A stretch of 24,000 nucleotides of DNA, taken from the NCBI RefSeq assembly GCF_004341945.1, contig NZ_SMBP01000018.1, forward strand, positions 23,817 to 47,816, read 5' to 3'. Source of the DNA: Longicatena caecimuris (GTDB taxonomy: Bacteria > Bacillota_I > Bacilli_A > Erysipelotrichales > Erysipelotrichaceae). Numbering within the stretch: position 1 is the stretch's first letter; every line of letters begins with the position of its first letter. Under the pieces are notes generated by a model. It searched no databases. It saw only the letters and a list, made by a program, of their open reading frames with translations, and was not told the DNA's origin. Shown here in pieces: positions 178 through 13,609 of this stretch. The position numbers and the translations under genes were made by a program.

Positions 178-1878
178 ATGTTAAAAGGTATTGCAGCATC
201 AGCGGGAGTTTCCATCGCAAAAGCATACAAATTGGAATCTCCAAAAGTTGAGATCGTTAAAAAAGAAGGAGATCCTGCAATTGAAGTTGAAAAATTCAAT
301 GCAGCACTCGAAAAGACAAAAACAGATATCGAGGGTGTAAAAGAAAGAGCAGCAGCACGTCTGTCTGAAGAAGAACTGGCTGTATTTGATGCTCATCTGA
401 TGATGGCTGGTGACCCTGAATTCGCATCACAGATTGTCGGCATGATCGAAAATGATAAAGTAAATGCAGAATATGCTGCTGATACGGTTGCCAACCAGAT
501 GGTAGCTATGTTTGAGTCTATGGATAATGATTATTTCCGTGAAAGAGCTGCGGATATCAAGGATGTTACGTATCGTTTGAAATGTAACCTGCTGGGACTG
601 ACAATTCCTGATTTATCAAGCATCAGTGAAGATTCTATTATTGTTGCTTATGATTTAACACCATCAGATACGGCACAGCTGAATACATTTGTAAAAGGCT
701 TTGCGACTAGTATTGGCGGTAAAACAAGTCATTCTGCCATCATGGCAAACTCTTTAGAAATACCAGCAGTTGTAGGATGTGGAGATATCCTGAGTGCTGT
801 TGAACATGGGGATACATTAATCCTGGATGCTTTAGATGGCGAAGTATTTGTAAATCCTGATGAAGAAACAATTAAGAAATATGAAGCAAAAGCAAAGGCT
901 TATGCTGAAGAAAAAGAAGCATTAAAAGTTTTAGTGAATGCGGAATCTGTCACAACAGATGGACATAAAGTTGAATTAGCTGGTAATATCGGTGGTTTTA
1001 AAGATGTTGAAGGTGTATTGAAAAACGGTGGTGAAGGCGTAGGCTTATTCCGTACGGAATTCTTATATATGGACAACGATCACTTCCCAACAGAAGAAGA
1101 GCAGTTTGAAGCATATAAGGCTGTATTAGAAGGAATGCAAGGACGCCGTGTCGTTGTTCGTACCTTAGATATCGGTGGAGATAAGAAATTATCATACTTT
1201 GAATTCCCAGAAGAAATGAATCCATTCTTAGGCTATCGTGCAATTCGTCTGTGTCTGGATCGTACAGATATCTTCCGTACACAGTTGCGTGCCTTGATTC
1301 GTGCTAGTGTTTATGGTAGATTATGCATCATGTTCCCGATGATTGCAACCGTAAAAGAATTCTGTGACGCAAAAGCTATTTATGAAGAAGAAAAGGCAAA
1401 ATTGATTGCCGAAGGTGTAAAGGTTGCCGATAATATCGAAGTTGGTATGATGGTGGAAATTCCTGCTGCAGCTGTTAATGCGGATAACTTTGCTAAACAT
1501 GCAGACTTCTTCTCTATTGGTACAAACGATTTGATTCAGTATTCAATGGCCGCAGATCGTATGAGCGAGCATGTATCTTACTTATATCAGCCATACAATC
1601 CATCTGTATTGCGTTTAATCAAGATGACGATTGATGGTGCACATAAAGAAGGCAAATGGGCTGGTATGTGTGGCGCAATGGCTGGAGAACCATATGCTGT
1701 ACCTTTGCTGTTAGGTATGGGATTGGATGAATTCTCAATGTCTGCTACACAAATTCTGAAAGCACGTAAGATGGTAAACGGTTTAAGCAAAGATGAAGCA
1801 GCAAAACTTGCTGATGAAGCATTAAAACTTGCTACTGCTGAAGAAGTACTTGATTTAGTTAAAAAAGCAGTGGATTAA
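178..1878 (+). CDS. ptsI: Phosphoenolpyruvate-protein phosphotransferase (PTS Enzyme I)
   Basis: 566-aa ORF with a strong SD (AAGAGGAGGA) about 7 nt before the ATG. Full-length EI layout: phospho-His context [11 protein letters not shown], plus PEP-utilising motifs [22 protein letters not shown] and the GMCG Cys region. Confidence 0.95.
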
Positions 1879-1932
1879 TCATTGAAAAGGGTATCTTATT
1901 GTAGTGACCTCCTAAAGTGAGTCTAACTTTTG

Positions 1933-1964
1933 AAGGGTAATATCACGCAAAGATATCCTTTTTT
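1933..1964 (+). terminator. Rho-independent terminator after ptsI
   Basis: Left arm AAGG[GTA]ATATC (1933-1944) pairs with GATATCCTT (1952-1960) across a 7-nt loop, and runs into a T tract (1959-1964). A second copy of the left arm, AAGGGTATCTT at 1887-1897, can pair with the same right arm as an alternative long-range stem. Confidence 0.6.
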
Positions 1965-2495
1965 GCTTTATTAGTAATACGATATAGGAGATTCTAAGAG
2001 GATCGCTAATCGTTGTGTGGAAGTATGTTGAAATAGATAAGAGATCGCATGCTGAATAGGATACGAATTGTATGCTTATGAGTACGTAAATTCAAATGTA
2101 GGACGTTGGAATCATCAATAAAAAGAAGGTGTCGTACCTCTTATCGTATAAGATAAAATGTAGCGCATAGCTCTTTTGGCATTGAAATTAGCAAAATTAA
2201 ATAAATATGCGAGATGTGAGAATCTGATTGTAGCGCTTACGACAATAATTTGCTAAAAATGACAAGATATTTCTTATTTCGTAAGATATAATTATTTTGT
2301 AATTAGCGGATAGCAACCCCGCAGTACAGCATCATCTGTATGCACATCTTTTCTTAAGAAAACCCTATGACATGAGTCAGTTCAAGGAAAAAGATGAGGA
2401 ATCATGGTGTGAGGACCTTGATTTTAGCGACATGTGGTGGAAAGAAATGATTCTTACAATCCCTTTCAAGAATCATTTTTTTTTATGCTTAACTA

Positions 2496-2504
2496 TGTTA
2501 AAAT
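2496..2504 (+). promoter_or_regulatory. Candidate extended -10 promoter (TGTTAAAAT) for the three-component sensor operon
   Basis: TGnTAAAAT lies about 26 nt upstream of the ATG at 2530. No convincing -35; the T-rich stretch 2476-2481 sits at that position. Confidence 0.35.
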
Positions 2505-2529
2505 AATGAAAAGAGGAAAGGGATTACAT

Positions 2530-3468
2530 ATGAAAAAAGCAGTACTAGCGGCATCGCTCATGCTTTTGTGCGGATGTCAAACAATGAAGAAGGAAACAGA
2601 AAAACCATTATATTTTGTGTTTGCAACACCATTATCTACACATACCCTATGGCTGCAGGCAAAAAGCGGTATGCAGGATGCTTGTGATCTACATCATATA
2701 CAATGTGATTGGCAAGGACCAATCAAAATTTCAACAGAACAAATGGAGGATGTAATTCAGACAGCAATTTTGAAAAAAGCAGATGGTATTATTACACAGG
2801 GAGTTATCAAGAAAACATATATCATGGAATCAATGGAGCAAAATGTACCGATCGTTCTTGTTGATTCACCGGTAGAAGACGCAAAGCCCCTTGCAACTAT
2901 TTGTAAGGATTTTGAACAACAGGCACAGATGCTTTTGACGGATATTGAAAAACGGATAGGAAAGAATGAACATCTGCGCATAGGAATTCAGGTATCGGAA
3001 CAAGATTTCGATTTGGCCAAACAGCAGATTGAATCCGTCCGTACGGTATTTAAAAAACATCCGGGCGGTTTTGAAATCGTTGCAATCAGTGAATCTAAGT
3101 CAGATCAATCCCGTTCACGTAATGAATGGATCAGCGTTTTGCAAAAAGAAAAAAATTTAAATATCACGCTAAATTTTGCCGGTGAAAGTGCGATTGGCTG
3201 TGTGATGGCGCGTGAATATCTGAATATGCAAGATGATCTGCTGATCTATGGTGTTGATGATATGGATGATACGGTAAAGATGATCAAAGAAGGTAAAATT
3301 GCCGGAAGTATAGTTACATCTTTTTATCGTTACGGATATGATTCCGTGGAGATGTTATATGAGTATGTAAGAAATGGAAAAGAGCCGGTGAAAGAGCTTC
3401 AGCCAGCGCAAATTCTATTGCTTAATAAAGGAAATCTAAAAACATATGAAAAGGAGCTGAAGGAATGA
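2530..3468 (+). CDS. Lipoprotein with type-1 periplasmic sugar-binding (RbsB/LacI-like) fold; likely ligand receptor of the adjacent two-component system
   Basis: The track ORF starts at 2434, but the ATG at 2530 follows the purine-rich SD AAGAGGAAAGGG. It opens a signal peptide, MKKAVLAASLMLLCGC, with a lipobox-like L-C-G-C (Cys16). The mature part shows the alternating beta/alpha pattern of PBP type 1 (ADGIITQGV, PIVLVDS, LIYGVDD). Its stop overlaps the next start (ATGA at 3465-3468). Confidence 0.8.
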   Translation: MKKAVLAASLMLLCGCQTMKKETEKPLYFVFATPLSTHTLWLQAKSGMQDACDLHHIQCDWQGPIKISTEQMEDVIQTAILKKADGIITQGVIKKTYIMESMEQNVPIVLVDSPVEDAKPLATICKDFEQQAQMLLTDIEKRIGKNEHLRIGIQVSEQDFDLAKQQIESVRTVFKKHPGGFEIVAISESKSDQSRSRNEWISVLQKEKNLNITLNFAGESAIGCVMAREYLNMQDDLLIYGVDDMDDTVKMIKEGKIAGSIVTSFYRYGYDSVEMLYEYVRNGKEPVKELQPAQILLLNKGNLKTYEKELKE

Positions 3469-4955
3469 TGAAACGGTGGTTGCGTCATAATGATCAGCTG
3501 GAAAGCTTCAGCGATAAGATTTTTAATTACAATCTCATGTTAATCGTCATTGTAGCCTTTGTTTGTTCGACATATGTCATGCTGAATATACGAATTATCG
3601 ATAAGTTTAATGATACCTATGTGAGCTACAATGATTTAAATGGCTTTTATTTTCATGTGAAGGAAATGAATGATAATTTTCAGGTCTATTTATATCAGCC
3701 CAGTGATGCAAATTATAAAGCTTTTCGTGATTCTTATAATGCATCCGGAAAAAACATAGATAAGATCATGCTGAGCCTAAAAGGGAATGAGCGAAAATGG
3801 CGTTTTGAACTCTTGCAGAATATGATTGATAAGTATTATATCGATGCTGAATTGGTCATTGCCAGTAATCTACAGCAAGAAGAAGACTTTAATCAGAAGT
3901 ATCAGAAGTTAATACATGAATATGAGCTGATAGCAAAGACAAGTGGAGAATATTATGATATTGTAACCGAAGATATGCAGCAGCAGAAAATTGCGGTAAA
4001 TGATAATCAGCGAACGCTGCATCTAGTATCTTTATTCTTTATTCTGTTTGTGATTACCTGGCTTGCTTATTTTTCCATTACGATGATTCGTTCGATGACA
4101 GATCCGATTGAGAAAATCATGAATAATATGAATCGCATTAAAATGGGTGAATACGACTTATCAAAAATTTCCAATGTAAACAAAGAAATGAATGTGCTTT
4201 GTTTGGCGTTAGAGGACCTTTCAAGAAGTATACAAAAAAATATTCAATATGCGAATGATAAATCCGATCTAGAGAAACGTGTATTGGAGCAGCAAAACGA
4301 AAATTTGAAAAAAGATGAACTGCTTGCGCAAAGTGAATTGAGGGTATTGCAAAATCAAATTAATCCTCATTTCTTATTTAATACCTTGAATATGATTTAT
4401 AAAAAGGCTTATAGTGAAGGTGCATATGAAACAAGTGAGCTGATGGAACGCACCAGCCGTCTGTTGCGTTATGCTTTGGATAATACCAGCCGCATCAGCA
4501 GTTTGAAAAAAGAATTAGCAGCTATTGAAAACTATAATTATATTCAGGCGAAACGTTATGGAGAACGTATTCGCTTTATTGTCGAGGCAGAAGAGGATCT
4601 TCCTGATATACGCATGCCAGGCATGATCTTACAGCCGCTTGTTGAAAATGCAGTTCTCCATGGTTTACAGGATGTTACGGAAGATGGTGAGGTCATGATT
4701 GAGGTTACGCAGCAAAACGATCATGTAATCATCAGTGTAAGTGATAATGGTGTTGGTATGGCCTCAGATGAATTGGAAAAATTAATTTTAAATGATTATG
4801 CCAAAGGAAGCGATGATCGTGTGCATCTGGGCTTATACAATGTTACCAGCCGCTTGAAGAAATTTTATGGTGATGAAGTGAGCATTATCATCAATAGTCT
4901 GGAAAACTGTGGCTTTGAGATTAATATTAAGATTGATCTAAGGAGGCGTTCCTGA
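3465..4955 (+). CDS. Sensor histidine kinase, YesM/LytS type (His_kinase + HATPase_c)
   Basis: SD AAGGAG lies 8 nt upstream. Two hydrophobic segments (about res 24-43 and 186-209) flank a roughly 140-aa extracytoplasmic region. Signature phospho-His box LQNQINPHFLFNTLN. ATPase motifs QPLVENAVLHG, SDNGVGM and GLYNV. Confidence 0.9.
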   Translation: MMKRWLRHNDQLESFSDKIFNYNLMLIVIVAFVCSTYVMLNIRIIDKFNDTYVSYNDLNGFYFHVKEMNDNFQVYLYQPSDANYKAFRDSYNASGKNIDKIMLSLKGNERKWRFELLQNMIDKYYIDAELVIASNLQQEEDFNQKYQKLIHEYELIAKTSGEYYDIVTEDMQQQKIAVNDNQRTLHLVSLFFILFVITWLAYFSITMIRSMTDPIEKIMNNMNRIKMGEYDLSKISNVNKEMNVLCLALEDLSRSIQKNIQYANDKSDLEKRVLEQQNENLKKDELLAQSELRVLQNQINPHFLFNTLNMIYKKAYSEGAYETSELMERTSRLLRYALDNTSRISSLKKELAAIENYNYIQAKRYGERIRFIVEAEEDLPDIRMPGMILQPLVENAVLHGLQDVTEDGEVMIEVTQQNDHVIISVSDNGVGMASDELEKLILNDYAKGSDDRVHLGLYNVTSRLKKFYGDEVSIIINSLENCGFEINIKIDLRRRS

Positions 4956-6484
4956 TGTATAAAATTTTAATAATCGAGGATGAGCAAATTGAACGCGAGA
5001 CACTTTATAAAATCTTACACGATAACTTTACTTTAAAAGGATTGTATATGGCGAAAAACGGGAAAGAAGCACTGGATGTTTTTGAACGTGAAAAGCCGGA
5101 AATTGTCTTAGCCGATATCAATATACCGGGAATCAATGGCTTAGAGGTCATACGGCGAATCAAACAACAGCAACAAGACACTTCCTTCCTTGTATTATCC
5201 AGTTATAACTATTTTGAATATGCACAAGAGGCCATTCGCCTAGGTGTGAGTGATTTTATTTTAAAGCCATACAACATAGAACATTTGAAAGAAGTCGTAG
5301 ATAGATTGATACACCAGCATCGAGAAAAACGTAAAGAGCAGCAACAGCATGATGAATTATTGGAGAAGATTGAAAAAATTACTCCGGTAGTTGAAAATGA
5401 ATGTTTGTATGCGATCATCTCAAATGAGAACGAATTAGAATTAAAACGTTCTTTACGACTATTAAGTCCCCATATCTGTAGTGGTTTTTGTATGATCATG
5501 CAGAGTTTGACATGTGCTTTTCATACCACAGCCATGGATACCATTTGTGAAAACTTTAAAAAGCAGGGATATCGCTGTATCAAAGAATTGTTTCATGGAC
5601 TGCAAATTTTCTTTATCCTTTTTGAGCGTCCGATTGACCAACAGGAAGTCCGACAGCTGGCAGGATATATCGATGGTTTGCGTAGTGAATATAAAGATGT
5701 CGTAATTGGTATTGGTCCTATTGTTTGTGAATTAATAAAATTTCATCATTCCTTTGATTTGGCGAGAGATCGATTAAGTGCTCAGGCACAGCCAGCTTTG
5801 AAGCTATTGATAGAAGATGAAAAAAGCAGTGAAGAAAATGCGGTAAATATTGCTACACAGGTAGAAGTATTCATGAAAGCATTTCAGAAGATGGATGAAG
5901 AATCTTTAAAAAAACATTTGAATCAATTAAGTCTTCAACTGATTCAGGAGGAAAAAGAACAATTGTATAAAGATGTATCTGAATTAATTACGTCTTTGAA
6001 AAACAGTTGTGAAAAACAATATCCGGAAATTGATTTTACTAAAGTCAAAATTACACCTTTGCGTGTGACAAGCAGTATTCACCAAGAAGTACCTTTATAT
6101 TTACATATGCAAATACATCGCTTGTATGATCTGATTGCTGAGGAGAAATTCCGTAATACGAATTTACTGGTACGTCATGCCATTCGTTATATTGACAGTA
6201 ATTATCGCAAACAAATTACATTGAGTGATATGGCAGATGCATTGCAGGTATCGCCTTATTATATTTCCAAATTACTCAGCAGCTCTTTGAATAAAACATT
6301 TACGGAACTAGTGAGTGAACGACGTGTAGAGGCTAGTAAAGAATTACTGAAAACAAATAAACGTATAAAAGAAATCGCTTATGAAGTAGGATTCCAAGGG
6401 CAAAATTATTTCACTAAAGTATTTAAAAATTATACCGGCGTTACCCCGAAGGTATATAAAAATACCTTTGAGAACAAGGAATAA
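4955..6484 (+). CDS. Response regulator with C-terminal AraC/XylS DNA-binding domain (YesN type)
   Basis: SD AAGGAGG lies 8 nt upstream, and the start overlaps the kinase stop by 1 nt. Receiver motifs: EDE at res 8-10, D54 in VLADINIPG, and K in ILKPY. C-terminal double HTH: ITLSDMADALQVSPYYISKLL ... IKEIAYEVGFQGQNYFTKVFKNYTGVTPKVYK. Confidence 0.9.
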   Translation: MYKILIIEDEQIERETLYKILHDNFTLKGLYMAKNGKEALDVFEREKPEIVLADINIPGINGLEVIRRIKQQQQDTSFLVLSSYNYFEYAQEAIRLGVSDFILKPYNIEHLKEVVDRLIHQHREKRKEQQQHDELLEKIEKITPVVENECLYAIISNENELELKRSLRLLSPHICSGFCMIMQSLTCAFHTTAMDTICENFKKQGYRCIKELFHGLQIFFILFERPIDQQEVRQLAGYIDGLRSEYKDVVIGIGPIVCELIKFHHSFDLARDRLSAQAQPALKLLIEDEKSSEENAVNIATQVEVFMKAFQKMDEESLKKHLNQLSLQLIQEEKEQLYKDVSELITSLKNSCEKQYPEIDFTKVKITPLRVTSSIHQEVPLYLHMQIHRLYDLIAEEKFRNTNLLVRHAIRYIDSNYRKQITLSDMADALQVSPYYISKLLSSSLNKTFTELVSERRVEASKELLKTNKRIKEIAYEVGFQGQNYFTKVFKNYTGVTPKVYKNTFENKE

Positions 6485-6701: not shown

Positions 6702-6727
6702 AGTAAGCATGTTAGCTTACTTTTTTT
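6702..6727 (+). terminator. Second tandem rho-independent terminator
   Basis: AGTAAGC (6702-6708) pairs with GCTTACT (6715-6721) across a 6-nt loop, followed by a 7-T run to 6727. Confidence 0.6.
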
Positions 6728-6916: not shown

Positions 6917-8431
6917 ATGAAGAATATAGTAGAGATGCTGGAAAACAGTTGTTCTCGTTATCCTGATAAAACAATGCTGATGGAACCGGAAAAGAGCATT
7001 ACATATAAAGCGTTTGTCAATGAAGCAAAAGCGATTGCTTGTAAGATTATAGAAAAAATACCATCACAGAATCAGCCTGTTGTCATTTTGATTGATAAAA
7101 GCATTCAGGCTCTCGTATCAATGATGGGAGTGTTATATAGTGGAAATTATTATACGATCTTAGATGTAAAGATGCCCGTTGAGCGTATGGAATGTATACT
7201 GAATACGTTGCAGCCAAGCCTGCTTATTAGCGATCATAAGCAATGGAAAACAGCCGAAAAGTTAAATTTTAAAGGAGATTTGTTGCTTTATGAAGAAAAC
7301 AAGACCTATGCGATAGAAGAAGCAAACTTATTATCCAGGCGAAGAAAGATGATTGATACGGATCCGGCATATGTATTGTTTACTTCCGGCTCAACCGGTA
7401 TTCCGAAAGGAACAGTTGTATCACATCGCAGTGTGCTTGCCTATGCCCATTGGGTTGTTGAAACCTTTGCAATCGATGAAACAACGATCTTTGGTAATCA
7501 GACACCGTTTTATTTCAGTATGTCTGTGCTTGATATTTATGCAACCCTTTTATCAGGTGCTAGTCTTTATTTGCTGCCAAAACTTTATTTCTCTTTTCCA
7601 GCAAAGCTTTTGGACTGCATGATTCAAAATAAGATCAATACCATTTACTGGGTGCCGAGTGCTTTAGGTATCGTGGCAAACTTAAAAGGTTTAGAAGTAT
7701 TGCCGCCTAAAGATGTAAAAAAGGTGTTGTTTGCAGGTGAAGTAATGCCAACAAAGATTTTAAATATCTGGCGCAGACATTTACCTGATGCTTTATATGC
7801 AAATTTATATGGTCCAACAGAAGTTACCGATATTTGTACGTATTATATTGTAAACCGTGATTTTGCGGATGATGAAGCTTTGCCAATCGGAAATGCTTGT
7901 AACAATTGTGATGTTATTGTGCTAAAAGAAGATGGTACACAAGCAAAAGGCGATGAAGCCGGTGAACTTTGTGTACGAGGAAGTTTTTTTGCAAATGGAT
8001 ATTATGATCAAGTGGAGAAAACAAGCGAAGTGTTTATTCAAAATCCATTGCAGCCTCATTATCCAGAGCTTATTTATCGCAGTGGTGATATTGTGAAATA
8101 CAATGAATACGGTGAGCTGATGTACTTATCACGTAAGGATTTTCAAATCAAGCATATGGGATATCGCATTGAACTTGGTGAAATTGAAACCGCTATGTTT
8201 GCGATAGAGGGGATGGATGCCTGTGCGTGTATCTATGATACACAAGCGAAATGGATCATCTTATATTATCAGGGCAAAAATTTAACGGAAAAAGCAATTT
8301 TGGAACAGGCAAAGGCCAAGCTGCCCAATTACATGTGGCCCAATAAATTTATTCCTATAAAACGCATGCCTTATAATGCAAATGGGAAAATAGATCGGAA
8401 AGCTTTAAAAGCTATGTATGCAGGAGGATAA
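6917..8431 (+). CDS. DltA-like stand-alone adenylation enzyme (amino acid/carboxylate--carrier protein ligase, ANL superfamily)
   Basis: SD AAAGGAG lies 9 nt upstream. 504 aa, which is DltA-sized. Adenylation core motifs: FTSGSTGIPKG (7382-7411), NLYGPTE, YRSGD, GELMYLSRKDFQIKHMGYRIELGEIE and NANGKIDRKAL. Followed 5 nt later by a DltC-like carrier gene. Confidence 0.9.
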   Translation: MKNIVEMLENSCSRYPDKTMLMEPEKSITYKAFVNEAKAIACKIIEKIPSQNQPVVILIDKSIQALVSMMGVLYSGNYYTILDVKMPVERMECILNTLQPSLLISDHKQWKTAEKLNFKGDLLLYEENKTYAIEEANLLSRRRKMIDTDPAYVLFTSGSTGIPKGTVVSHRSVLAYAHWVVETFAIDETTIFGNQTPFYFSMSVLDIYATLLSGASLYLLPKLYFSFPAKLLDCMIQNKINTIYWVPSALGIVANLKGLEVLPPKDVKKVLFAGEVMPTKILNIWRRHLPDALYANLYGPTEVTDICTYYIVNRDFADDEALPIGNACNNCDVIVLKEDGTQAKGDEAGELCVRGSFFANGYYDQVEKTSEVFIQNPLQPHYPELIYRSGDIVKYNEYGELMYLSRKDFQIKHMGYRIELGEIETAMFAIEGMDACACIYDTQAKWIILYYQGKNLTEKAILEQAKAKLPNYMWPNKFIPIKRMPYNANGKIDRKALKAMYAGG

Positions 8432-8436
8432 AAAAT

Positions 8437-8664
8437 ATGGAGAAATTACTAGCAATCTTAGAAGATATGAAACCAGGAGTCGATTTTAAAAAAGAAAAGA
8501 AACTTATTGAGGATGGTATTTTGGATTCCTTCGATATCGTTGAAATTATTGCGGCTATTGATGATGAATTTGATGTTGAAATTCCAGTTATGGAAGTACA
8601 GCCAGAGATTTTCAATGATGTAGAAAAGCTATATGCGCTGATTGAGCGATTAATGGAAGAATAG
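8437..8664 (+). CDS. DltC-like (D-alanyl-type) carrier protein
   Basis: 75 aa with SD AGGAGGA 8 nt upstream. GILDSFDIVEIIAAIDDEFDVEIP closely parallels the DltC phosphopantetheine region (GLLDSFGTVELL...). The candidate attachment residue is Ser31, codon 8527-8529. Confidence 0.85.
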   Translation: MEKLLAILEDMKPGVDFKKEKKLIEDGILDSFDIVEIIAAIDDEFDVEIPVMEVQPEIFNDVEKLYALIERLMEE

Positions 8665-8674
8665 GATTTGTATC

Positions 8675-10237
8675 ATGTCATTGATATCGCTGCCATTCAT
8701 GCTGTTAGTGACAGCATCTTGTGTGCTTTATTATCTTGCGCCGAAACAGTGGCGATGGTGTATTTTGCTCTTAGCAAATGTCATCTTTTATGTTGCGGCC
8801 TCGCAGGCATTGATCATTTTCCTGATAGGTAGTATTTTGAGTGTATATATCGGCGGCTTAGCTATTAACAAACAGATAAAGCTGCAAAAAGCTACCATAA
8901 AAAGTTTAGAAAAAGACCAAAAGAAAGCCTATAAGGCTATGATGAAGAAACGGAAGCAACTGATTTTGATCGTCGTATTGGCAATCAATATTGGTATCTT
9001 GTGCTATTTAAAATATTACGGTTTTTTTGCCGGTAATCTGAATGCCATAAATGCTTTATTGCATGTTAATGTTAATATCGCAGTAAAAAAATTTGTACTG
9101 CCACTTGGAATCTCCTATTATACCTTAATGGCCATCAGTTACATGGTAGATGTGTATAGAGGCAAATACGAAGCAAGCCCTCAGCTTGGGAAAGTCGCTT
9201 TGTATTTGTCCTTCTTCCCACAAATGACAGAAGGTCCGATCTCACGTTTTGATCAGTTAGCCGATCAATTGTATGCGGGCAATGAATTTGACATTATAAA
9301 ATTCAAGAGTGGTTTATATCTAATTCTTTGGGGACTTTTTAAAAAATTAGTCATCGCTGATCGAGCTGCGCTATATGTGAATCCAGTATTTAGTGGTATG
9401 CATGGAGGTTTTACCGCTTTTTTAGCTGTTGCCTTATATACATTACAAATATATGCTGAATTTAGTGGCGCTATGGATATCGTACGTGGAATTGGCTATT
9501 TGTTTGGTGTTCACATGGAGAAAAATTTTGAACAACCGTTTTTCTCAAAAAGTATAGCTGAATTCTGGCGTCGCTGGCATCGTACGTTAGGGACTTGGCT
9601 AAAAGATTACGTATTTTATTCAATATCATTATCTAAAATGAATATGAATTTGAACCGTTCTGTGAAAAAGCATATGAAAGGGAATTTCGGAAGATTTATC
9701 CTAAGCGCATTTCCCCTCTTTTTTGTCTGGTTTTTCAATGGATTCTGGCATGGCGCCAGCTGGAAATATATTGTATATGGTTTATATTATTATCTAATTA
9801 TGATGATGGGCTTGTTGCTTGCCCCTGTTTTTACGAAAATCAAAGATACGTGGCATCTTCATGAACAGCGAAAAGGCTATCGTCTCTTTTGTATCTTACG
9901 TACGGTATTGATTGTTTTTGGTGGCATGCTGATCTTTCGTGCGCACTCACTAGATGATGCCTTGCAAATGCTGTTGCGGATTTTTACGATGCAGGAAACG
10001 GATATCTTAGCACATGGGCTGACTCTTGTTGATTTTGGCATTTTGATATGGGGATTGGTATTGATGTTTATAATAGCAGGCTTAAAGGAAAGACGTGTAA
10101 ATTTATTTGCATTATTCGATCAGAAAAGTCTGTTGTTGCGTTATGGTATTATCCTTATCATAGGGGTATCCATTATCGTATTTGGTATTTATGGTCATGG
10201 TTATCAAGCAAGCGATTTTATATATGGTGAATTTTAG
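8675..10237 (+). CDS. MBOAT family O-acyltransferase (DltB/AlgI-like) with fused C-terminal DltX-type acyl-shuttle tail
   Basis: 520 aa and polytopic. MBOAT signatures: FPQMTEGPISRF, FWRRWHRTLGTWLKDYVFY, and FNGFWHGASW with the conserved His at res 359. The C-terminus ends HGYQASDFIYGEF-stop, which fits the F-x-Y-x-x-F hexapeptide. Confidence 0.9.
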   Translation: MSLISLPFMLLVTASCVLYYLAPKQWRWCILLLANVIFYVAASQALIIFLIGSILSVYIGGLAINKQIKLQKATIKSLEKDQKKAYKAMMKKRKQLILIVVLAINIGILCYLKYYGFFAGNLNAINALLHVNVNIAVKKFVLPLGISYYTLMAISYMVDVYRGKYEASPQLGKVALYLSFFPQMTEGPISRFDQLADQLYAGNEFDIIKFKSGLYLILWGLFKKLVIADRAALYVNPVFSGMHGGFTAFLAVALYTLQIYAEFSGAMDIVRGIGYLFGVHMEKNFEQPFFSKSIAEFWRRWHRTLGTWLKDYVFYSISLSKMNMNLNRSVKKHMKGNFGRFILSAFPLFFVWFFNGFWHGASWKYIVYGLYYYLIMMMGLLLAPVFTKIKDTWHLHEQRKGYRLFCILRTVLIVFGGMLIFRAHSLDDALQMLLRIFTMQETDILAHGLTLVDFGILIWGLVLMFIIAGLKERRVNLFALFDQKSLLLRYGIILIIGVSIIVFGIYGHGYQASDFIYGEF

Positions 10238-10254
10238 TGAAAGGAGCAAACATC

Positions 10255-11298
10255 ATGAAAAACAGACGTAAATCTATCCTAGCCTTTACATCCTTTATTG
10301 TTATTTTTGCTCTATTATTAAACTTATTTTCCATGATATTAATTCCCAAAGATAATAAGATGAGCAAAACGATACGTGGCTTCTATGAAGAAAAGAAAAA
10401 CTCATTAGATGTTTTATTTCTTGGTGATAGTAGTATGTATCGCAGTATCATACCTGCTAAGTTGTGGAAGGAAAATGGTTTTACCAGTTATGCACTGGGC
10501 GCTCCTTCGGTAAGAACCTATGCTTTGTATTATTTATTGGAAGAAGCATTAAAAATGCAAAAGCCAAAAGTAGTCGTTATGGAAGTGAATTGCGCATTTA
10601 ATGATCATAAATATTCTATGGGAAATAAACGAAAGATTATCGATCACATGAAACTTTCGATGAATAAAATTAATATGATTCAAGATGCAGCATTTCAATT
10701 TTCTTTAACTGATAAAATAAGTTTATTATTCCCTGTCTTTTTATATCATAATCGTTATAATGAAATAAATGCGGTTGATATAGCTGAAACCTTTGGTTCG
10801 CCAATGAATGATACGAAGGGCTTTATTAGTAGCTACAAGCAAAAACCGTATAAAGGGAAGACCAATTATATGCGTGCATCTTCACAGGCGATGTTTGATG
10901 CGAATAGTAAAAAATATATGGATATGATTCATGATATATGTAAAAAGAATCATATTAAGCTTATGTTATTAAAAGTACCGGGTGCCAAAGAATGGAATCA
11001 AAGTAAAAAAGAGGCAGTAGAGTTGTATGCAAAAGAACGACATCTGCCATATTTAGATTTAAATACGAATATGGAGAAGAACATCGATTGGAGAAGGGAT
11101 ACGAATGATTCCGGAGTACATTTGAATATCTTTGGTGCAGAAAAGGTGACGATGGAGCTCAGTCAGTATTTTCGTCGTCATTATCGACTGAAAAAAACAA
11201 CTGATCAAGAAGTAATTACTTCCTTCAATAAAGCTTATCGCTTATTTAATGAGAAACGAAAGTCTTATAAAAGACCTGTCAAGACAGTTACTATTTAA
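10255..11298 (+). CDS. Membrane-anchored SGNH/DltD-like extracytoplasmic (trans)esterase
   Basis: The track start is the GTG at 10237, but the ATG at 10255 has SD AAGGAG 8 nt upstream. One N-terminal TM segment (ILAFTSFIVIFALLLNLFSMILI). A block-I-like motif VLFLGDSSMY and a late DSGVH Asp/His motif are present. The gene occupies the position that dltD has in dlt operons. Confidence 0.7.
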   Translation: MKNRRKSILAFTSFIVIFALLLNLFSMILIPKDNKMSKTIRGFYEEKKNSLDVLFLGDSSMYRSIIPAKLWKENGFTSYALGAPSVRTYALYYLLEEALKMQKPKVVVMEVNCAFNDHKYSMGNKRKIIDHMKLSMNKINMIQDAAFQFSLTDKISLLFPVFLYHNRYNEINAVDIAETFGSPMNDTKGFISSYKQKPYKGKTNYMRASSQAMFDANSKKYMDMIHDICKKNHIKLMLLKVPGAKEWNQSKKEAVELYAKERHLPYLDLNTNMEKNIDWRRDTNDSGVHLNIFGAEKVTMELSQYFRRHYRLKKTTDQEVITSFNKAYRLFNEKRKSYKRPVKTVTI

Positions 11299-11337
11299 GA
11301 ATACCTATTATGAAATGAATCTTACAGGTATATGTAC

Positions 11338-11374
11338 CTCTATATTGGATAATCCAATATAGAGTTTTTTTTTT
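11338..11374 (+). terminator. Rho-independent terminator of the Dlt-like operon
   Basis: CTCTATATTGGA (11338-11349) pairs with TCCAATATAGAG (11353-11364) as a perfect 12-bp stem with a 3-nt loop, followed by a 10-T run. Confidence 0.85.
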
Positions 11375-11381
11375 GACTTCC

Positions 11382-11693
11382 ATGAAGACGGATGATTACA
11401 AAAAAGCTTGTGAATATGCAGGTATTAATTTTGATCAAACATCCTATGATAAAAGCTCGGCATTGCAGAAAAAGACAACGAAAGAAAGCTATGCCGCTAT
11501 GGTATTCAAAGTAGGCAAGCAAAAAGTGTCAAAAAAGAAAGTCACAGTAGATGTTGAAATCATAACTACGGATTATTTAGAAATTATGAATCAGGCCGTA
11601 TATGATACTATGAAAATTAAAAAAGATGATGCATATACATATAGAGTATTTTCTAGTATCAAAATAGAGAAGAATAAGCTTCTAAATTGTTGA
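11382..11693 (+). CDS. Hypothetical protein, possibly a 5'-truncated gene remnant
   Basis: 103-aa ORF from the first ATG; the track TTG start at 11373 lies inside the terminator T tract. No SD, no signal peptide, and no motif I recognise. Confidence 0.3.
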   Translation: MKTDDYKKACEYAGINFDQTSYDKSSALQKKTTKESYAAMVFKVGKQKVSKKKVTVDVEIITTDYLEIMNQAVYDTMKIKKDDAYTYRVFSSIKIEKNKLLNC

Positions 11694-11772
11694 TACCTAG
11701 CAGTTAAAAAAACGATGTATGATACAGCATTTTGTTGTTTGTGTTTTATGAAACAATACAATTAGAATATGC

Positions 11773-11827
11773 AAAAAAAGCGGTATCTACATGCCATATT
11801 AAGATATGGCGAATAGTTACCGTTTTT
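11773..11827. terminator. Bidirectional terminator (serves pepF on the minus strand)
   Basis: Inner stem GCCATAT (11793-11799) pairs with ATATGGC (11804-11810) across a 4-nt loop. Outer stem CGGTA (11781-11785) pairs with TACCG (11818-11822). Flanked by A7 (11773-11779) and T5 (11823-11827). Confidence 0.65.
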
Positions 11828-11842
11828 ATATGAACATAGGGT

Positions 11843-13609
11843 TTATTTGTTATAGGACTCGCTCAGAGTTAAGAATTCATTTACTCTTTCCTCAGCGGTT
11901 TTTAAACAACTGATCCAGAAATCTTTAGAAGTCAGATCAATGTCAGCCAATTTAGCAACATCTTCAACATCGGATACCGTTGTCGCATGTAGCAATTCAC
12001 GATATTTTGGTACGAAAGCATCCTTCATTTCATGATATTTTACAATTAAGCCACGGGCAAATAAACCGCCAAAAGCGTAAGGGAAGTTGTAAAAGCTCAG
12101 AGCTGATGAATAATAATGGCTCTTATTGATCCACATATAAGGATGCAAATACTGCTCATCTAAGCCATCACCATATGCTTGTTTTTGTGCATCCAACATC
12201 ATCGCTTCTAGTTCATCCGGGAATAGGAACCCCTCTTTACGTTTTTCAAATACCTTTTTTTCAAATAAGAAACGAGAATAGATATCACACATAATCTGTG
12301 TAAGATCTTGAAGCTGTGTTTCTATTAATGCCAGTTTTGTTTCACCTTCTGCTTCATCAATTGCAGCATTCATGATGATATTTTCATTAAAGGTAGAAGC
12401 AGTTTCGGCAACTGGCATGGAATAATCTGTATTAAGCATCTTGTGATCCTGGATCATCATACCATGATATGCGTGTCCTAATTCATGAGCCAATGTCACA
12501 ACATCGCCTAAGGAACCATCAAAATTCGTTAAAACACGACTTTGTTTCAAGAAAGGGAGATTTTCGCAGAATGCGCCTCCAACCTTACCCTTACGTGGAT
12601 AGAAATCAATCCATTCATCTGCAAAGGCTTCTTCCATCATATCCGCCATATCCTGTGCAAAAGGCGCAAAATGTTTCAACAGATAGTCTTTTGCTGTTTC
12701 AATCGTGAATTTTGTATCGTCTTTTCCAATAGGTGCAAATAGCTCATACCAAGGAAGTCCGTTTTGATAACCTAACATTTCCGCCTTGCGTTTTAAATAT
12801 TTACGGAATACCGGCATATAATCATCCATGGCCGATAGCATGGCATCTAAGGTTTCCTGTTTCATATGGGACTGATGCAGTGTCATTGCTAATGGAGAAG
12901 CGAAACCGCGCAATTCACATTCTGTTAAGACTTGTGCTTTGATGTTGTTTAAAGAAAAGGCAATAGCATCACGAATCTTGGCATAAGCAGCTAATTCTGC
13001 TTCATAAGCGCGTTTACGCACCTTTTTATCAGAGTCATATGCCAAGTTGCGAATCTGTGAAAGGGTAGTTGTTTTTCCATCATAGTCTACTTCTAAGGTG
13101 CTGGTCAGATAGCTTTGCATGGTTTCCCAAGCCTGTCCTGCCGAGATATCCATCTTGGATAATACTTCTTCTACATCATCACTGAGTAAGTAACGACCAT
13201 CTTCTTGAATCGAATGTAACAAGTAGGTGTATTCCTGTAATGCTTCTTCTTTTTCCAGGCAAGCATCAAGATCTTTTATTTGTGCAATATAGCGATTGAA
13301 TTTTGCTTTTGCTTTTGCCACGTTGCTTGTTTTCTTAGTGATCTTATCTAAATAAGCTGCTGTTTGCGCATCAGTGGTATCACAGCTTTGGCGCAGATTG
13401 GCATATGCCAACAGCTGGTAGCTGACCTGTTCTAATTCATTTAATGTAGTTAGAATTTGTTTCAAGGTAGCAGTTTCATCCTTATCGGATAAGGTGTCTG
13501 CCAAGGTATTGCATTGTGCAATCAATTCATCAAGTTTCTTGATATCTGCTTCAAATTGCGGATCATCATAACCCTTATAGAGGACATCAAGTGACCAAGT
13601 TTCTTTCAT
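11843..13609 (-). CDS. pepF: M3-family oligoendopeptidase (PepF type)
   Basis: 588 aa. Zinc site HELGHAYH with a downstream Glu (ETASTFNE). The length and overall layout are typical of oligoendopeptidase F. Confidence 0.85.
   Translation of the reverse strand: MKETWSLDVLYKGYDDPQFEADIKKLDELIAQCNTLADTLSDKDETATLKQILTTLNELEQVSYQLLAYANLRQSCDTTDAQTAAYLDKITKKTSNVAKAKAKFNRYIAQIKDLDACLEKEEALQEYTYLLHSIQEDGRYLLSDDVEEVLSKMDISAGQAWETMQSYLTSTLEVDYDGKTTTLSQIRNLAYDSDKKVRKRAYEAELAAYAKIRDAIAFSLNNIKAQVLTECELRGFASPLAMTLHQSHMKQETLDAMLSAMDDYMPVFRKYLKRKAEMLGYQNGLPWYELFAPIGKDDTKFTIETAKDYLLKHFAPFAQDMADMMEEAFADEWIDFYPRKGKVGGAFCENLPFLKQSRVLTNFDGSLGDVVTLAHELGHAYHGMMIQDHKMLNTDYSMPVAETASTFNENIIMNAAIDEAEGETKLALIETQLQDLTQIMCDIYSRFLFEKKVFEKRKEGFLFPDELEAMMLDAQKQAYGDGLDEQYLHPYMWINKSHYYSSALSFYNFPYAFGGLFARGLIVKYHEMKDAFVPKYRELLHATTVSDVEDVAKLADIDLTSKDFWISCLKTAEERVNEFLTLSESYNK

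Follow-up and report, generated by a model that had tools for sequence, protein, structure and literature searches.

The acyl-Tyr shuttle model of bacterial membrane-bound O-acyltransferase (MBOAT) pathways has been presented as a dichotomy: the Dlt system draws on a carrier protein as donor and uses a separate shuttle protein, DltX, while other MBOAT-SGNH systems draw on acyl-coenzyme A (acyl-CoA) and have the shuttle motif fused to the MBOAT. In the Dlt pathway, DltB takes D-Ala from DltC and places it on the Tyr in the FXYXXF motif of DltX, and DltX then passes it to the Ser of DltD (PMC12148441). Other bacterial MBOATs bear the same motif on two extra transmembrane (TM) helices; PatA auto-acetylates the Tyr of its motif, the substitution Y445F abolishes this labelling, and the acetylated hexapeptide is the donor for PatB (PMC12148441). 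These other pathways are said to lack a carrier protein because acyl-CoA is used (PMC12148441). Here we analyze a stretch of 24,000 nucleotides (nt) from Longicatena caecimuris (assembly GCF_004341945.1, contig NZ_SMBP01000018.1, positions 23,817 to 47,816 of the forward strand), which we call the window, and in particular a group of four genes that encodes an MBOAT with a DltX-like C-terminal tail next to an adenylase, a small carrier protein and an SGNH-fold protein. We think it likely that this operon acylates a cell-envelope polymer through a relay that joins features of two known systems, a Dlt-like donor and a PatA-like fused shuttle. An earlier, sequence-only reading of the same DNA had pointed to the tail and had invoked published biochemistry for it; that biochemistry exists as described, for the acyl-Tyr on DltX, the fused motif in other MBOATs and the auto-acetylation of the PatA Tyr (PMC12148441).

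The MBOAT gene is an open reading frame (ORF) of 520 amino acids (aa) at positions 8675-10237 (Pfam MBOAT, PF03062; this and all features below are on the forward strand). Its product ends ...GIYGHGYQASDFIYGEF (SDFIYGEF) ahead of a TAG stop codon. Tyr517 is encoded by the TAT codon at nt 10223-10225, and residues 449-520, which begin at nt 10019, include the two hydrophobic helices LTLVDFGILIWGLVLMFIIAGL and YGIILIIGVSIIVFGIYG; on all of this the sequence and an AlphaFold2 model agree with what the sequence-only reading had reported. The model, built on 120 homologues, has a predicted local distance difference test score (pLDDT) of 89.2 and a predicted template modelling score (pTM) of 0.87, and its top Foldseek matches are the DltB structures 6bug and 8jem, with HHAT and PORCN also among them. 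The catalytic His302 (codon 9578-9580) lies in the sequence WRRWHRTL, which aligns with WNRWH of DltB, and is kept in at least 90% of sequences; His359 is invariant in the homologue alignment. Against the DltB model of NCBIfam (TIGR04091) the protein scores 137.8 bits, for a cut-off of 375.

To locate the part of the protein that DltB does not have, we use reference DltB sequences taken from the dltXABCD loci of E. faecalis and Leuconostoc. In this alignment DltB ends opposite MBOAT residues ~425-435, so that the two helices and the tail make up an extension of about 85 residues that is absent from DltB. In the AlphaFold2 model the extension contains helices at residues 451-472, 477-482 (short) and 486-503, followed by the tail, whose residues 511-520 are modelled with low confidence (mean pLDDT 53). 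The first extra TM helix (residues ~449-472, 10019-10090) is predicted to run from outside to inside and leads into a cytoplasmic KERR loop and the short helix; the last (residues 486-503, 10130-10183) would return from inside to outside, and AlphaFold2 and hhalign mark it as equivalent to the one TM helix that DltX has. Then comes a tail that is predicted, from sequence conservation, charge and pLDDT, to be flexible and extracytoplasmic (residues 504-520, 10184-10234), and it closes with the putative acyl-shuttle hexapeptide F515-I-Y517-G-E-F520 (10217-10234). The order of TM helix, short cytoplasmic helix, TM helix and flexible tail is that published for helices alpha15-17 of PatA (PMC12148441).

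The window MBOAT also has an N-terminal insertion relative to DltB. Residues 60-112 (8852-9010) form a long cytoplasmic helical hairpin that is inserted with respect to DltB and has 12 lysine or arginine (K/R) residues in 53. We considered this hairpin as a carrier-docking device and rejected the idea: the feature is not carrier-specific, and fused MBOATs without a carrier have it too.

The terminal motif is retained by homologues at every distance that we sampled, as the sequence-only reading had expected. An F-I-Y-x-x-F ending is present in 119 of the 120 closest database homologues (46-100% identity), and the columns of F515, I516 and Y517 are invariant in the 120-sequence alignment. Among 150 cluster representatives at 33-50% identity, full-length proteins almost without exception have Tyr at position -4 and end in an aromatic residue, while F, P, L, M, A or S may occupy the first motif position. 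The motif also stands at the end of the MBOAT in 78 of 80 related loci that we collected from genome assemblies, mostly of Lachnospiraceae, Oscillospiraceae, Acutalibacteraceae and other Clostridia; of the two that do not, one is truncated by a contig end and the other, which does not have the motif, is possibly frameshifted.

How closely does this tail resemble DltX itself? Genuine DltX ends in FIYNEF, invariantly in all 38 annotated DltX proteins (PF12459) that we inspected. Aligning the tail with the DltX family had been proposed as a check on the sequence-only reading, and we carry it out with a profile of 32 diverse 48-residue MBOAT tails. The tail profile matches the DltX profile with an hhalign probability of 74% (E 2.8e-5) over 33 columns that take in the TM helix and the tail, and the register is kept to the last residue. 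The claimed DltX-type layout, one TM helix and then a C-terminal F-I-Y-x-x-F, is thereby upheld: as far as the aligned sequences tell, the correspondence of layout is exact, and the sequence evidence for homology between tail and DltX is moderate. No separate dltX ORF was found in the window, which bears out a further claim of that reading. Nor does the motif arise here by chance: the MBOAT alone ends x[ILVMFT]Yxx[FYW] among all stop-terminated ORFs of at least 20 aa in the six frames of the whole window.

A shuttle of this kind would have to present its Tyr on the outer face of the membrane, and here we turn to the distribution of charge. Across 262 homologues the last loop between TM helices averages 4.26 K/R and the tail 0.32; in 99.6% of these proteins the loop is the richer of the two in K/R. 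DltX is biased likewise, at 3.6 K/R ahead of its helix and 0.37 behind it. The window MBOAT itself has AGLKERRVNLFALFDQKSL as its loop and a tail free of K/R, with two acidic residues. By this positive-inside bias the tail lies outside the cell, like that of DltX, and we therefore predict an extracytoplasmic C-terminus, the side to which the sequence-only reading had assigned it.

Now we consider the donor side. The first gene of the group encodes a DltA-like stand-alone adenylation enzyme (6917-8431; 504 aa; Pfam AMP-binding, E 6.9e-58). It is 28% identical to E. faecalis DltA and scores 288.5 bits against the DltA equivalog model of NCBIfam (TIGR01734), for which the cut-off is 559.85; against the model for amino-acid adenylation domains it scores 318 bits, with a cut-off of 317.4. 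We read its substrate pocket from alignments to LgrA, E. faecalis DltA and Leuconostoc DltA. Ser201 replaces the Asp that binds the alpha-amino group in DltA and in the adenylation (A) domains of non-ribosomal peptide synthetases (NRPS), the pocket being FYFSMSV in place of YSFDLSV in DltA and of FSFDGS or YIFDIS in LgrA (FYFSMSVLDIY, residues 198-208, window 7509-7541). An Ala takes the place of the enantiomer-selecting Cys of DltA (LFAGEVM, window 7713-7733, versus LFCGEEL). Both substitutions, Asp to Ser and Cys to Ala, are conserved across the clade to which the window belongs. Because the amino-binding Asp is replaced by Ser, the donor adenylase is, by its pocket, not a DltA orthologue, and because that Asp is missing the acyl group is probably not D-alanine. 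Together the two substitutions speak against D-Ala and possibly against any alpha-amino acid.

The second gene encodes a DltC-like acyl carrier protein (8437-8664; 75 aa; Pfam PP-binding). Its putative phosphopantetheine-attachment site is Ser31 in GILDSFD (codon 8527-8529), where the DS motif aligns with LLDS of DltC. The best NCBIfam matches of the carrier are DltC models, at 39.8 bits (cut-off 68) and 34.6 bits (cut-off 52.35). The sequence-only reading had spoken of a dedicated DltA/DltC-type donor. A DltA-like adenylase and a DltC-like carrier are indeed encoded, but with its Asp-to-Ser change the adenylase does not qualify as DltA.

The fourth gene, directly behind that of the MBOAT, encodes a membrane-anchored SGNH-fold partner of 347 aa (10255-11298, counted from ATG 10255). 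We rejected GTG 10237 as an alternative start; ATG 10255 has an AAGGAG ribosome-binding site and agrees with the gene calls in the near-identical contig L001. The protein begins with a helix that serves as anchor, and in the homologue alignment G57-x-S59, Asp285, His289 and Asn291 are invariant; Ser59 of GDSS (codon 10429-10431) is the likely nucleophile. Its AlphaFold2 model (pLDDT 89.2) finds SGNH acylhydrolases, DltD (6pfx, E 5e-6; 3bma) and PatB (7tlv) in Foldseek. By sequence, the protein has no match to the Pfam DltD family (PF04914) and no BLAST similarity to DltD.

By their spacing and boundaries, the four genes at 6917-11298 form a tight single operon bracketed by terminator-like sites. 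The adenylase, carrier and MBOAT genes are separated by 5-10 nt, and 17 nt precede the ATG of the SGNH gene. A terminator-like hairpin at 6702-6721 marks the upstream edge, and a strong one at 11338-11364, with a 12-bp stem and then a T run, marks the end. The gene order is A-C-B-SGNH, versus X-A-B-C-D in the dlt loci of E. faecalis and Leuconostoc. An Rfam scan of the whole window gave no riboswitch or T-box that would hint at the substrate.

Directly upstream, on the same strand, lie genes for a periplasmic sugar-binding protein, a histidine kinase and an AraC-type response regulator (2434-6484), and the hairpin at 6702-6721 parts these sensor and regulator genes from the operon. On the other side, 3' of the operon terminator, is a small ORF (11373-11693; 103-106 aa) that only the near-identical contigs L001 and L002 keep. 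It has no family match and no counterpart among the 80 related loci; we rejected it as a member of the system, as it lies beyond the terminator-like site and has no homologue in the related loci.

We next ask how common this combination of genes is. A DltC-like gene is present in 56 of the 80 loci, 53 of which encode an adenylase too, and in 44 of the 80, from many genera, the carrier gene directly abuts the MBOAT gene. If only those 59 loci are counted that have 3 kb or more of sequence to either side, 44 have a carrier. The sequence-only reading had called a fused shuttle paired with a DltA/DltC-type donor unusual. The pairing does contradict the published generalization that fused-motif pathways are carrier-less, and in this sense the remark stands; at 56 of 80 Clostridia loci, it is not rare in genomes. 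We found no description of a fused-tail MBOAT with an adenylase and a carrier in the literature searched, the coverage of which is incomplete, so that absence is not proven.

The adenylases of these loci fall into several pocket classes: FYFS[ML]S, which is that of the window's clade, FDFDVSVK, FYFDNSIL (with a DltA-like Cys), FYFD[LA]S, and a distant acyl-CoA-synthetase-like class, LNHS. In a neighbour-joining tree the MBOATs cluster for the most part according to adenylase class; outside the window's clade the classes are in part intermixed. A basal group and scattered members have no carrier. That the MBOAT tree follows the adenylase class favors functional coupling over chance adjacency.

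Two members of the window's own class are informative about the acceptor. Locus L004 encodes TarI-like and TarJ-like proteins, a GT2-TagF fusion, a GT-C protein and an AT3 protein (1038-4207 and 8669-13075), and locus L010 a TagF-like/GT4 protein, an ABC-2 exporter and an LCP ligase (1350-3683 and 8657-11331). By gene content both are wall-teichoic-acid-type loci, and because of these neighbors of related operons the acceptor is probably a teichoic-acid-like polymer.

Two variants of the operon deserve mention. In related operons of the FDFDVSVK class, as in locus L028, a pyridoxal-phosphate-dependent decarboxylase of the Orn/DAP/Arg type is encoded between adenylase and carrier (L028 4550-5770), and a Na:alanine symporter follows the SGNH gene (L028 8590-9969). 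Such a decarboxylase suggests that the acyl group may be remodelled while on the carrier; the window is without a gene of this type. A second type of operon runs in the order MBOAT, carrier and then a distant acyl-CoA-synthetase-like ligase (20-26% identity) that has no NRPS-type pocket, and its MBOAT keeps the fused Tyr tail (loci L043, L048, L053, L054, L066, L067, L070, L072, L074, L077 and L080).

From these elements we can assemble a relay for the window operon. Sequence anatomy, conservation, predicted fold and topology, and gene linkage are established here, and we infer every chemical step. In the cytoplasm, the DltA-like adenylase would activate a small carboxylic acid and load it as a thioester on Ser31 of the carrier. 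The carrier would then dock at the cytoplasmic face of the MBOAT, and with His302 as catalyst the acyl group would pass along the membrane tunnel to Tyr517. On the outside, the tail would swing the acyl-Tyr ester to Ser59 of the SGNH protein encoded by the neighboring gene, and this protein would esterify the polymer. The tail would in this way do the job of DltX within the MBOAT polypeptide, as published for PatA-type MBOATs, with a donor side that is Dlt-like.

Several considerations weigh against this relay. The evidence on this MBOAT and its clade is all computational, and no polymer-synthesis genes are present in the window. The topology call rests on charge bias. The Pfam DltX model (PF12459) reaches only E 0.8 against MBOAT residues 505-520, and the hhalign probability of the match between tail and DltX is moderate. 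In the adenylase pocket, we take an Asp, conserved in the window's clade, to be residue 330, a tentative assignment as the mapping beyond position 235 follows GrsA-PheA numbering. Finally, for 24 of the 80 related fused-tail MBOATs no carrier gene lies close by, so that the fold is able to work without one, and linkage alone is not proof that the carrier is the donor here. Presumably the basal group and the scattered carrier-less members use acyl-CoA.

The last of these points leads to a different account of the window itself, namely that its MBOAT is an ordinary acyl-CoA-fed O-acetyltransferase of the PatA/AlgI type and that its neighbors, adenylase and carrier, have some other function or stand beside it by chance. 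Pathways with a fused-motif MBOAT are published as users of acyl-CoA without a carrier (PMC12148441), and the carrier-less loci just mentioned and the K/R-rich cytoplasmic hairpin, which is common to carrier-linked and carrier-less members, are what this account would lead one to expect. It does not fit easily with the carrier gene directly adjoining that of the MBOAT in 44 loci of many genera, with an MBOAT phylogeny that tracks the adenylase pocket class, or with the tight packing of the four window genes between two terminator-like sites, and we judge it improbable. Slightly better placed, though still unlikely in our estimate, is the proposal that the operon encodes true D-alanylation (Dlt), dltX having merely been fused to dltB, with D-Ala loaded by the adenylase and D-alanyl teichoic acid as the end product. 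The best NCBIfam matches of three of the proteins are after all the DltA, DltC and DltB models, related operons sit in teichoic-acid-type loci, and the SGNH partner is DltD-like at the level of fold. Yet the scores fall far under the equivalog cut-offs (288 versus 560, 40 versus 68 and 138 versus 375 bits), the amino-binding Asp is Ser throughout the window's clade and the Cys of DltA is Ala, the partner is without sequence similarity to DltD, and the genes run A-C-B-SGNH and not X-A-B-C-D. Judged by these sequence features the system is not a canonical Dlt pathway.

One could also suppose that the C-terminal hairpin and its motif are purely structural, for packing or for docking of the partner, and that no acyl-Tyr is ever formed. 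The case for an acyl-Tyr in this family rests on homology, and the last residues are modelled with low confidence; but the Tyr is invariant where its neighbors vary, and counted from the C-terminus it has the position of the DltX Tyr. We give this supposition very little credence, and return to the relay from carrier to Tyr517 to SGNH protein as the likely course of events.

What would such a relay mean? That the tail is fused is the published norm for bacterial MBOATs outside the Dlt system, and for this reason the tail by itself is not new. In the window operon and dozens of related ones, the two sides of the published dichotomy are combined, which makes donor type and shuttle arrangement independent of each other. 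They also offer a natural single-chain system for studies of carrier-to-Tyr transfer, with no dissociable microprotein. Taking all observations jointly, we tentatively propose that the operon belongs to a large uncharacterized group of carrier-fed MBOAT-SGNH systems of gut Clostridia that have the shuttle Tyr within the MBOAT, and that the adenylases of this group, of at least four or five pocket types, may supply teichoic-acid-like polymers with a range of acyl groups that are neither acetyl nor D-alanyl. For the window's class (Ser at 235, Asp at the presumed 330) the acid would possibly be one without an alpha-amino group. As part of the same tentative proposal, the layout may be an evolutionary bridge from acetyl-CoA-fed PatA/AlgI systems to Dlt, DltX having split off as the last helix and tail; the hybrid suggests how DltX may have arisen. 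It also points to cell-wall modifications, possibly ones that alter charge, in abundant gut commensals, and changes of this sort could bear on how well the cells resist antimicrobial peptides and on how the host recognizes them.

Finally, we set the operon beside the three described systems that it most resembles. PatA/PatB and other fused-motif MBOAT-SGNH pairs such as those of AlgI and WssH, which we compare by published description, have like the window MBOAT two extra C-terminal TM helices and a terminal F-x-Y-x-x-F with an invariant Tyr, and further share with it a tail on the outside (predicted here), a separate SGNH partner encoded next door and the lack of a DltX microprotein. PatA/PatB serve in the O-acetylation of Gram-negative peptidoglycan. 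The donor of these pairs is acetyl-CoA, with no carrier (PMC12148441), whereas the window operon encodes an adenylase and a carrier. On this donor side it is the Dlt system that comes closest: it too has an adenylase and a small carrier, its DltB is the closest solved structure to the window MBOAT, its shuttle ends in FIYNEF where the window has FIYGEF, its final transferase is an anchored SGNH-fold protein, and relatives of the window operon lie in teichoic-acid-type loci. The Dlt shuttle, however, is a separate microprotein of 45-50 aa and that of the window is part of the MBOAT chain; the Dlt adenylase has an Asp where the window has Ser, the Dlt partner belongs to the Pfam DltD family, the gene order differs, and the window proteins miss all Dlt equivalog cut-offs. 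OatA, an O-acetyltransferase of peptidoglycan, in turn follows the logic that we propose for the window, in that a membrane domain acylates an extracytoplasmic Tyr from which the group passes to an SGNH Ser (PMC12148441); it does so with an AT3 fold in place of an MBOAT, with the SGNH domain fused to it, and with acetyl-CoA as donor.

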